A DNA stretch of 64,000 nt from an uncultured bacterium (lineage in GTDB: Bacteria > Patescibacteriota > Minisyncoccia > UBA6257 > 2-01-FULL-56-20). Numbering within the stretch: position 1 is the first letter of the stretch; the number at the start of each line of letters is the position of its first letter. The stretch lies in the NCBI GenBank assembly GCA_963807165.1, contig CAWDZM010000001.1:289521-353520 (forward strand). The letters are read 5' to 3'. The notes under the pieces are model-generated. The model worked only from the letters and a program-made list of their open reading frames with translations, was not told where the DNA came from and ran no database searches. Below, in pieces: positions 51,133 through 52,819 of this stretch. The position numbers and the translations under genes were made by a program.

Positions 51133-51156
51133 AATAGTTGGAATTGTAGCAAATTC

Positions 51157-51552
51157 CTATGGCGCGTGCAAACGCTGTATCGCCTCAATCTTTTCTACGC
51201 GATGACCAAGAGCAACTATCGCTTCTTTATCCGCCTTTCTGCGCAAATCCCCCGCGAGGCCGTCGAATTTTTTATCTAACTTATCGAGCTTTCCATCCAC
51301 CTTGATGAGTTTTCCTTTAAGCCCAACAAGATGTTCTTCTGTTAACATTGATTTTACCTCTAGGCGCATAACTTTATCCTCGAGTTGGCTAAATCTTCCC
51401 GATAACGCATCAATACTTTCATTGGTGCCAGTCTGCCCCTCTATGATAAGATCCATTTTATCATTTAGCACCTCAGACATCATTCCATCGGAAAACGACG
51501 TCTTCTGCTTCTTTTTGTTCGATATTTTTTTATTTTCCATAACTCCAATCAT
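51157..51552 (-). CDS. Hypothetical coiled-coil protein
   Basis: 131 aa with heptad repeats. Confidence 0.4.
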   Translation of the reverse strand: MIGVMENKKISNKKKQKTSFSDGMMSEVLNDKMDLIIEGQTGTNESIDALSGRFSQLEDKVMRLEVKSMLTEEHLVGLKGKLIKVDGKLDKLDKKFDGLAGDLRRKADKEAIVALGHRVEKIEAIQRLHAP

Positions 51553-51699
51553 AGAAGTTTATTATAGCATTGCAAATAATTTTTCATAAACATTTAATGT
51601 TTTACAGAACCGCATTTCGATCATTAAAAATTGATGAAAAACTTTTTGACTAAAATTTTTCACGCACTAAAATGAGAGATTTTAAAAGTTATTCAGATC

Positions 51700-52260
51700 T
51701 TTCACGCTGGAAATAATGGCCGAACAATCCCCGTGGTATGGGATAAGACATCTCCCCGTGGCTAGTAGGGTGATTCCAAAAGCCTGACGCCGGCGGCTGA
51801 AACGCCGCCGTCTAAGCCAACGAGCAAGTGCTCGAGGCATGAGGAGAGAGTACGAGGCGCAACTCCTACACGATTAACAATTGAAGGGGTAGTACCCCGC
51901 GCATAGCTCCGGGTAAGGCCGAGGGTTCTATTCGGCTACACATACGCCCGCGTTGTGCGGAATAAAACAAGAGCGCTAGACGCGACGAGGAGACAGTAGT
52001 TTTACTACGACTCCGAGGAGCAACGACACGCTCTTGTTTTATAACCACAACCCGAAGGGATCTTAGAAAAATACCATAAGCCTGCGTTACTCCTCCTTGG
52101 AGTGATAAAATCACACCATCGTCGCCGCGCCTTGGCTTGCGGTCTTTTTCTAAGATCGCGGGCGTATGTGTAGCCGAATAGAACCCCACCCAGTCATTCC
52201 GGTTGTTTCCAGCGTGAAGGGTCGGAATAATTTTTATGATAAAAAAATGAACCTTGCTCA
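51700..52260. other. Large structured non-coding region with nested perfect inverted repeats; the segment 51924-52185 is a MITE-like or ncRNA-like element with 29-bp terminal inverted repeats
   Basis: GGTTCTATTCGGCTACACATACGCCCGCG (51924-51952) and its exact reverse complement (52157-52185) flank 204 bp that contain a further 12-bp inverted repeat (AAAACAAGAGCG/CGCTCTTGTTTT) and several GC hairpins. No convincing ORF is present; the track ORF 51866..52261 has no SD and has odd composition. Confidence 0.45.
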
Positions 52261-52296
52261 AGGGTTCTACTTTTTACACGCAAAAGCGTGTAAGCA

Positions 52297-52569
52297 TTAT
52301 GACCACCAGTCGCCTTCATTTCTGATTGGACCGGAATCGCATTCCAGGCCTCCATGTGCAACATATTGCATCAGGAGGTAGTTGGCTGCGGAGATTGGCC
52401 ACATAAAGAGACTGATGAGGATCCAGAGCGGCATCGCAACGCGCGGGCTGAATCCGTTGTTGGGATTGTAAGGTTCGCCACGACGGATTACGAACTCTCG
52501 AACCCATAGACAGGCCATAAGTAACGCCGGACCTACCCATAGGATAAAAAACCATACCCATTCCTTCAT
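52297..52569 (-). CDS. Hypothetical small membrane protein (two TM helices)
   Basis: 90 aa, W-rich and hydrophobic. Confidence 0.45.
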   Translation of the reverse strand: MKEWVWFFILWVGPALLMACLWVREFVIRRGEPYNPNNGFSPRVAMPLWILISLFMWPISAANYLLMQYVAHGGLECDSGPIRNEGDWWS

Positions 52570-52711
52570 GATTCCTCCTCGCTGACTGACAAGCGGCGTA
52601 GATATTGAACTATCGAAATGAAGCCGCTGACTGCATTATAACATATCAATATATCTTGTCAAATTCATGCGTTTTTACCGCCTCACGCATATCGCTGCAG
52701 TAGCAAAGGCC

Positions 52712-52811
52712 CTCAGGATTGTCTTTGAGGGGAATCGCGGAGGCACGGAGGTGCCGAGCGTTAGGGCGCGGCTAGTAAGCCGCGACCCGTCCCCGAAAAG
52801 ATGATCCTGAG
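52712..52811. repeat. Copy B of the structured hairpin repeat family: imperfect basal stem with a conserved core
   Basis: Core GGAATCGCGGAG-GCAC-GGAG-GTGC-CGAGCGTTAGGGCGCG-GCT-AGTA-AGC-CGCGACCCGTCCCC, flanked by CTCAGGAT...ATCCTGAG. It ends 8 nt before the atpG stop. Confidence 0.7.
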
Positions 52812-52819
52812 AGCTTTTG

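Follow-up and report, generated by a model that had tools for sequence, protein, structure and literature searches.

The ATP synthase (atp) operon of an uncultured Patescibacteriota bacterium, located in a 64,000-nucleotide stretch of contig CAWDZM010000001.1 (hereafter the window, meaning the whole stretch that was analysed), raises the question of what separates atpG from atpD, two genes that are normally neighbours. The atpB-E-F-H-A-G and atpD-C genes are all on the minus strand, and the interval between atpG and atpD (51133-52819) measures 1,687 bp, in agreement with the interruption of 1.7 kb described in an earlier reading made from the letters of the DNA (the sequence-only reading). Our preferred interpretation, held with moderate confidence, is that the interval harbours an orphan RNA gene in a mosaic islet, and that this gene carries a hairpin module which resembles a ribosomal RNA (rRNA) intervening sequence (IVS) and is invertible as DNA. 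The anatomy and conservation of the gene, and the presence or absence, inversion and compensated evolution of its module, can be followed directly in the related loci that we compared (designated by L numbers).

The atpG-atpD junction and its proposed RNA gene

A search with AtpG retrieved orthologues (43-92% identical) from 80 genomes, all of them Paceibacterota / Parcubacteria-type genomes of the candidate phyla radiation (CPR), and the spacing between atpG and atpD could be evaluated in 73. The median gap in these genomes is approximately 9 bp; it is 50 bp or less in 46 of them and exceeds 1 kb in only two, which upholds the view that adjacency is the norm. The closest relatives, L002 and L004 (AtpG identity of 92% and 91%, respectively), have a gap of 3 bp, while other close relatives have gaps of 444 bp (L001), 562 bp (L005) and 1,338 bp (L006). 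The insertion is therefore lineage-specific, and because the gaps of the closest relatives differ among themselves, the junction is best regarded as a lineage-specific hot spot and not as an ancestral arrangement.

Within the interval, a stretch of 744 bp (51553-52296) has no credible open reading frame (ORF) and contains the gene of a structured non-coding RNA (ncRNA) that is oriented antisense to the operon (Table 1). Its core consists of 51680-51920 and 52187-52236. The sequence-only reading had envisaged, as one possibility, a large structured ncRNA; a structured RNA is indeed supported, but the proposed unit was too small, since the RNA spans approximately 51680-52275 and the 264 bp delimited by the repeats constitute an optional module within one of its loops. 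Three features had not been foreseen: the inversion of the module's interior from strain to strain, an outer stem that closes the RNA, and a promoter and a terminator directed opposite to atp. The closing stem (P1), in which the two ends of the RNA pair over roughly 24-34 bp, corresponds to inverted repeat I3, an outer repeat of 34 bp (51683-51716/52203-52236, 85%) that had not been listed before. Both the -35 and the -10 box of the RNA promoter are kept in 18/18 aligned copies, and the promoter was re-detected independently in L104 and L121; the terminator hairpin at the other end is conserved in L099, L113 and L121, and in L121 it was also detected by a scan.

More than 20 orthologous copies of the RNA were recovered, all in the atpG-atpD gap and all from one peat/bog clade. 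An exact 22-mer from the conserved part gave 16 metagenome contigs from peat and bog samples, and protein-guided look-ups added loci L116-L119 and L121. A profile search with nhmmer over all related loci collected found no homologue of the RNA outside this clade. In L006, the homologue of 51690-51920 is fused directly to that of 52188-52236, the 264 bp between them being absent.

The segment 51680-52275 folds with a minimum free energy of -267 kcal/mol (z -14.5). A consensus fold of the core, built from 11 module-free sequences, has 81 pairs, with 98.6% of the cells paired and four pairs changed on both sides; in a slid-register control, double changes numbered 0 at offsets -3 to +2 and one at +3. 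Helix 1, which belongs to P1, has 23 pairs (98.8% paired) with U-G/U-A alternation. A short hairpin of the variable linker changes in sequence and keeps its pairing (GGA/UCC, CGAU/AUCG, UGAU/AUCA, CGAU/AUUG), and in helix 4 of the window copy an indel on one side is matched by an indel on the other. Column identity in the core is 93%, against approximately 80% nucleotide identity in the neighbouring atp genes. Many G-U pairs are invariant or frequent, several of them in the 23-pair closing stem; they include invariant pairs at 31/271, 88/93, 179/218, 185/213 and 248/260 and a predominant one at 140/151. Because such pairs would be A-C mismatches on the atp strand, they argue for an RNA that is antisense to atp.

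None of the 4,227 Rfam covariance models matches the RNA gene, with or without the module. At the gathering score, cmscan of the window yielded only tRNAs elsewhere, and at E values up to 10, over 51100-52900 and over the module-free L006 copy, it yielded noise only; ARAGORN found no tRNA or tmRNA in the RNA stretch. The earlier remark that motifs of RNase P, tmRNA and the signal recognition particle (SRP) are absent is confirmed by Rfam 15, whose models of 6S, OLE, GOLLD, ROOL, HEARO and group I/II introns were likewise unmatched. Hammerhead-like and 5S-like motifs noticed by eye were unsupported by the Rfam models. On these comparisons, the gene represents a previously undescribed and narrowly distributed candidate RNA family.

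Could the stretch encode a protein instead? Two ORFs exist, one of 131 aa at 51866-52261(-) and one of 16-23 aa starting at 51727(+), and the first 10 codons of the latter are invariant. The 131-aa ORF, however, lacks a Pfam match and runs across the module, a segment that relatives lack or carry flipped, while the frame of the small ORF is broken by a 1-nt indel, its stop shifts between strains and its invariant codons show no synonymous change. We regard a protein-coding stretch as exceedingly improbable. The small ORF (51727-51798, +; 16-23 codons, MAEQSPWYGI...) begins at an invariant ATGGCC within the RNA and is probably not translated.

A hairpin module that is present, absent or inverted

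The module is bounded by a perfect inverted repeat of 30 bp (GGGTTCTATTCGGCTACACATACGCCCGCG), which has only two matches in the window at three or fewer mismatches, with 0 expected by chance. Repeats of 29 bp had previously been placed around 51924-52185; they are perfect as described, and longer by one base pair. The nested inner repeats reported with them were recovered at 51962-75/52029-42 (14 bp, 100%) and 52059-82/52134-57 (24 bp, 88%). The insertion point follows from the comparison of empty sites, GGCC-CTA-ACCCAG, with filled ones, GGCC-GA[GGG...CCC]C-ACCCAG: three nucleotides are replaced, and these (CTA) form the apical loop of the RNA's 3' hairpin (A2 columns 247-261). Across the six filled loci the size of the module, including the replacement GA[GGG...CCC]C, is 262-268 nt.

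In its predicted fold, the module is a 30-bp helix that ends in a three-way junction bearing two arms. The sequence of arm 1 is nearly invariant in five strains, and helices 2-4 vary at one pair only. The outer helix, like the 24-bp stem of arm 2, changes rapidly yet remains paired. In five module sequences, 20/100 pairs have changed on both sides, transversions included (11/29 in the outer helix and 8/24 in arm 2), and 0 pairs of the outer helix vary on one side alone; shuffled and slid controls gave far lower values. The two repeat arms agree at 30/30 positions in the window, L104 and L105, at 29/30 in L121 and at 27/30 in L119, all mismatches being transitions. L100 and L121 have a second repeat type, which differs from that of the window at approximately 9 positions and is likewise self-complementary. 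G-U pairs number only 2-4 in about 100 bp, and the two strands have similar folding energies; as the module is almost wholly Watson-Crick paired, it should take the same fold in either orientation. Compensated changes confined to the two long helices, few G-U pairs and equal strand energies are together as expected of a hairpin that must fold whichever strand is transcribed; homogenisation of the two repeat arms by recombination would produce this pattern too.

The module is present in six loci (the window, L104, L105, L119, L121 and L100) and cleanly absent from ten. One further locus, L116, has a deletion scar consisting of a single repeat arm at the module site (GGGTTCTATTCTGCTACACACAC|ACCCAGTC), and this decayed copy indicates that the RNA and the module can be lost. 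Orientation A is found in the window, L105 and L119, and orientation B in L104, L121 and L100 (partial). The 204-nt interior of the window is 59% identical to that of L104 when compared directly and 88% when flipped, whereas the corresponding values for L105 are 84.5% and 59%. The inversion is confined to the interior, and both halves of the core remain on one strand. Neither the presence of the module nor its orientation tracks the linker types of the RNA, which points to exchange from strain to strain or to repeated events.

Repeated insertion would give the same incongruence, and the sequence-only reading had proposed, as its other possibility, that the segment looked like a miniature inverted-repeat transposable element (MITE). 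Such an element would be a non-autonomous transposon with 30-bp terminal inverted repeats that landed in the RNA gene or targets it. The perfect terminal repeats, the small size (264 bp), the lack of a credible ORF and the clean presence/absence polymorphism at a single site are all in line with such an element. However, no target-site duplication is found, since three nucleotides were replaced and nothing was duplicated, and there is a single copy in the window, with none off the orthologous site in 121 loci (approximately 1.3 Mb) or in IMG/VR. The repeats also differ between strains at up to 9/30 positions, (nearly) always in a compensated manner, whereas an end recognised by a transposase would keep its consensus, and the interior too is under pairing constraint. 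As there is no repeat consensus, no duplication and no copy at another site in the sequences searched, the MITE proposal is weak and finds no support in the comparison; we consider it distinctly unlikely.

The two orientations, each seen in three loci in nature, could instead reflect a programmed inverton, flipped at high frequency by a recombinase and toggling an RNA domain between sense and antisense or moving a terminator between strands. The repeats are perfect or nearly so, contig L100 breaks just inside the module, and the interior slightly favours one sense, since flipping L104 back improves its folding by 7 kcal/mol and two G-U pairs are confined to orientation A. A weak terminator-like site (AGGAGCAACGAC.CGCTCTT + GTTTTAT) moreover changes strand with the flip, from the RNA strand (orientation A) to the atp strand (orientation B). 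Yet no recombinase was found among 27 Pfam-scanned ORFs (including 24 of the 75 window ORFs) or by eye in the window ORF list, the element contains no sigma-70-like promoter site in either orientation, and its overall fold is orientation-neutral. As the repeat sequence is not conserved, it is unlikely to be a protein-recognition site, and because the orientations come from different strains or samples, the data need only one inversion event, perhaps a few. A classical inverton is not supported, and we judge the programmed inverton unlikely. A phase-variable switch inside the RNA gene, which would turn a conserved 200-nt domain from sense to antisense and move a terminator between the RNA and atp strands, seems improbable to us; if it existed, one population of a small-genome CPR bacterium would contain two isoforms of the RNA or express atpD in two modes. 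To our knowledge, an inverton acting on a non-coding RNA gene has not yet been described.

We therefore return to the interpretation of an IVS-like module in an orphan RNA gene. Its two repeat arms would recombine in the DNA, and such recombination would leave the interior in either orientation and the arms identical to each other yet diverging between strains, with occasional deletion of the module. In the RNA, the perfect 30-bp helix is one that RNase III, whose gene lies in the window (Table 1), would be expected to cut, and cleavage would either remove the module or divide the RNA. That recombination causes the flips and that RNase III processes the RNA are inferences, as is any role in the cell. 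The islet's own promoters and bidirectional terminator would, in addition, break the atp operon into separate transcription units.

Several points weigh against this interpretation. The RNA is dispensable, since the closest relatives lack it and L116 has a decayed copy. The core by itself has only a modest folding advantage over shuffled sequence (z -3.4), its covariation comes from only 11 closely related sequences, and recent transfer of the islet among strains may account for part of the core's high conservation. DNA-level gene conversion between the repeat arms can produce compensated change without selection on an RNA, and the mismatch between module and linker types also fits site-specific re-insertion of a mobile element. 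Finally, the transcription of the RNA, its ends and the cleavage of the module by RNase III are deduced from sequence signals.

The mosaic islet and its neighbouring genes

The neighbours of the RNA vary from strain to strain. Upstream stands a member of the coiled-coil ORF family, an ORF of 136 aa or one of 147 aa, and downstream tm90 (a 90-aa ORF), an HNH-like ORF, PsbP-like secreted proteins and others; the RNA is the constant part of a strain-variable mosaic islet. Pfam searches with the ORFs that flank it in related loci gave weak HNH and PsbP-like matches and no shared partner protein.

Hypervariable flanking genes are also what a conserved stretch acting as DNA might produce, for instance as a site of recombination or integration that forms a cruciform and turns the junction into a cassette hot spot. 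The strand-symmetric helices of the module with their few G-U pairs, and the palindrome scars and truncations in L116 and L107, would suit such a site. It is nevertheless very improbable in our opinion, as many invariant G-U pairs of the core are workable on one strand only, the conserved promoter and terminator bracket the stretch precisely, and no integrase lies nearby among the ORFs scanned.

Other candidate associations were rejected. No reverse transcriptase, retron, TnpB or IscB partner adjoins any copy of the RNA, and a type I toxin-antitoxin pair with tm90 was ruled out because most copies of the RNA occur without the 90-aa ORF. With respect to a phage or plasmid origin, four exact-pattern scans of IMG/VR (one of them for the module's conserved arm) and blastn searches against phage and plasmid collections were empty; a 15-mer gave 17 matches in IMG/VR, which nhmmer showed to be due to chance.

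Some copies of the RNA are damaged or interrupted. In L107 the RNA is truncated by another gene, and in L116 (3373-3606) the promoter and the 5' third of the decayed RNA are deleted and the internal hairpin has collapsed. Several contigs (L100, L098/L114/L115, L102, L103 and L111, one of them 35.5 kb long) end within the RNA gene or just inside the module repeat, which suggests that heterogeneity of strains or of orientation breaks the assemblies.

The contents of the interval given in the sequence-only reading were all found. Along the atp strand the order is the long hairpin, a promoter-like site, the 90-aa ORF, the 744-bp stretch, the 131-aa coiled-coil ORF (cc131), a second promoter-like site and atpD. 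There is no Pfam family for tm90, and it has only 4 homologues among 5.8 billion proteins, those with readable context sitting after atpG. For cc131 the Pfam matches are sub-threshold only; its 9 homologues are 46-100% identical, and those with readable context stand directly upstream of atpD. As a route to new contexts, the two families (9 and 4 proteins) proved tiny and confined to the atpG-atpD gap. Evolution is very rapid in the coiled-coil ORF family (33-69% identity, against approximately 90% for AtpD), and the length of its members varies through tandem KFD-G/D-L heptad-like repeats, for example in L110 (117-557).

Table 1. Coordinates, strands and basis of the features discussed (window positions unless a related locus is named; a dot marks features without a strand).
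Feature	Position	Strand	Basis or remark
RNase III gene, putative trans-acting factor	10594-11280	-	Pfam PF14622 (2.3e-39), PF00636, dsrm
atpC	49486-49734	-	ORF
atpD (F1 beta subunit)	49738-51132	-	ORF and tblastn orthologues; downstream edge of the insertion
Promoter-like TTTGCA-18-TACAAT (TG), directly upstream of atpD	51143-51172	-	consensus match only
cc131, 131-aa coiled-coil ORF, accessory gene adjoining atpD	51157-51552	-	ORF
Promoter-like site for cc131, back to back with the RNA promoter	51548-51576	-	region conserved in L114 and L116
RNA promoter TTGACT-16-TAAAAT, sigma-70-type	51646-51673	+	conserved
Structured ncRNA gene	51680-52275	+ (antisense to atp)	about 596 nt here; about 330 nt without the module
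Closing stem P1, 5' strand	51683-51716	+	pairs with 52203-52236
Optional hairpin module, orientation A here	51923-52186	+	264 nt
Inverted repeat, left arm	51923-51952	+	perfect, 30 bp
Module arm 1, branched hairpin, 14-bp stem 51962-75/52029-42	51953-52052	+	inverted repeat I8; about 100 nt
Module arm 2, hairpin with 24-bp stem	52059-52157	+	inverted repeat I5; fast-evolving yet paired
Inverted repeat, right arm	52157-52186	+	perfect, 30 bp
Closing stem P1, 3' strand	52203-52236	+	pairs with 51683-51716
Bidirectional intrinsic-terminator-like hairpin GAACCTTGCTCAAGGGTTC	52249-52275	.	A-run and T-run at its sides; would serve the RNA (+) and tm90 (-)
tm90, 90-aa ORF, two hydrophobic segments, accessory cassette	52297-52569	-	ORF
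Promoter-like TTGACA-16-TATAAT with upstream TG	52635-52662	-	12/12 consensus match only; positioned for the 90-aa ORF
Long hairpin ('hairpin-family copy B')	52692-52831; arms 52692-52733 and 52790-52831, 42 nt	.	inverted repeat I1, fold
atpG (F1 gamma subunit)	52820-53755	-	Pfam ATP-synt PF00231, E 2.9e-81; upstream edge of the insertion
ORF family of about 130-147 aa	L099 7806-8195, 5351-5794; L106 2812-3204		

A conserved three-way junction sits at the apex of the long hairpin, between its arms, and the final codons and the stop of atpG overlap with the right arm; the same junction is found 3' of atpG in L001, L005, L106, L108, L117 and L118. It is one of three copies of a hairpin family in the window (25245-25372, 52692-52831 and 62727-62846), in which the apical junction (GGGGACGGGTCGCG-loop-CGCGCCCTAACGCTCG-hairpin-CTCCGCGATTCCCC) is conserved on a stem of 25-42 bp whose sequence is different in each copy. 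The stem extends over the upstream gene's stop codon in 2/3 copies, and one arm consequently resembles an inverted copy of the gene's 3' end. Neither the hairpin after atpG nor the three-copy family as a whole has a real match in Rfam. One copy of the family lies among five clustered tRNA genes (61840-63676), which occupy both strands.

Further accessory ORFs occur in the clade and in the window. Related ORFs of approximately 130-147 aa (...KHFFSIYGK / ...KHFWSIIP) occur both at the atpA-atpG junction and beside the RNA; those at the former site indicate that other atp junctions in the clade also acquire small accessory genes, and the one member scanned has no Pfam match. Small HNH-endonuclease-like ORFs with weak Pfam matches are present in L006 (5401-5652, -) and in the window (63110-63586, +). 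The ORF in L006 directly follows the RNA on the same strand, with no intervening terminator.

The hairpin after atpG, the tm90 promoter, the bidirectional terminator, the back-to-back promoters of the RNA and cc131 and the promoter-like site before atpD suggest, as sequence signals, that in this strain atpD-C may have ceased to be transcribed simply as one unit with atpB-G. The essential atp operon of these reduced genomes appears to tolerate interruption by an islet that varies between strains and brings promoters and terminators of its own, and this matters for operon-based annotation and for the reading of gene order in CPR genomes.

Comparison with known systems

Like OLE, GOLLD, ROOL, HEARO and raiA, the RNA described here is a long multi-helix ncRNA with its own promoter, and such RNAs are sometimes located in mobile or variable regions. 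Unlike them, it has no sequence or structure match and a far narrower distribution, being restricted to one clade and one locus. It would add an undescribed structured RNA family from the CPR, whose ncRNAs appear little studied, and its gene boundaries, strand and fold can be used in metatranscriptome searches.

The Correia repeat-enclosed elements, which are MITEs of Neisseria, give rise to a transcribed hairpin to which RNase III can bind and which it can cut (PMC2649163, PMC10969869). The module resembles them in being small and ORF-less and in having terminal inverted repeats (approximately 26-30 bp). Correia elements, however, are scattered in many copies, carry a TA duplication and keep a conserved repeat consensus, in contrast to the single-site module, which has no duplication and whose repeats drift by compensated changes.

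Well-known examples of invertons are fimS, hin, the invertible promoters of Bacteroides and intragenic invertons. As in these systems, the module is bounded by inverted repeats and both orientations are known. It differs in that no invertase gene was found nearby among the ORFs scanned, in having neither promoter nor coding sequence, in a repeat sequence that is not conserved between strains, and in that the flipped segment lies inside an RNA gene. Invertons are generally described as short DNA segments between inverted repeats of 10-35 bp that occur in both orientations (PMC9881135; bioRxiv 10.1101/2023.03.11.532203).

The closest parallel is with the IVSs of 23S rRNA. As in an rRNA IVS (100-400 nt), the extra segment replaces the apical loop of a helix and its ends form a long stem; its occurrence is likewise sporadic among close strains, and no target-site duplication accompanies it. 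The differences concern the host of the module, an orphan accessory RNA of approximately 300 nt within the atp operon that has no rRNA match, and the interior, which is found in both orientations. We know of no described IVS with this last property. In 23S rRNA, IVSs are found in helices 25 and 45 in Salmonella, Campylobacter, Coxiella and Leptospira, and their excision is not followed by religation. They are optional long hairpins that replace the loop of a helix, occur sporadically among strains and are removed by RNase III (PMC4990558, PMC2801512). An optional hairpin insertion of the rRNA kind would then be possible in a small accessory RNA as well, and the segment could be flipped at the DNA level at no cost to the fold, which would explain the near-absence of G-U pairs from the helices of the module. 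Taken together, these comparisons suggest that, in its behaviour, the module comes nearest to an rRNA IVS that also undergoes DNA inversion mediated by its repeats.

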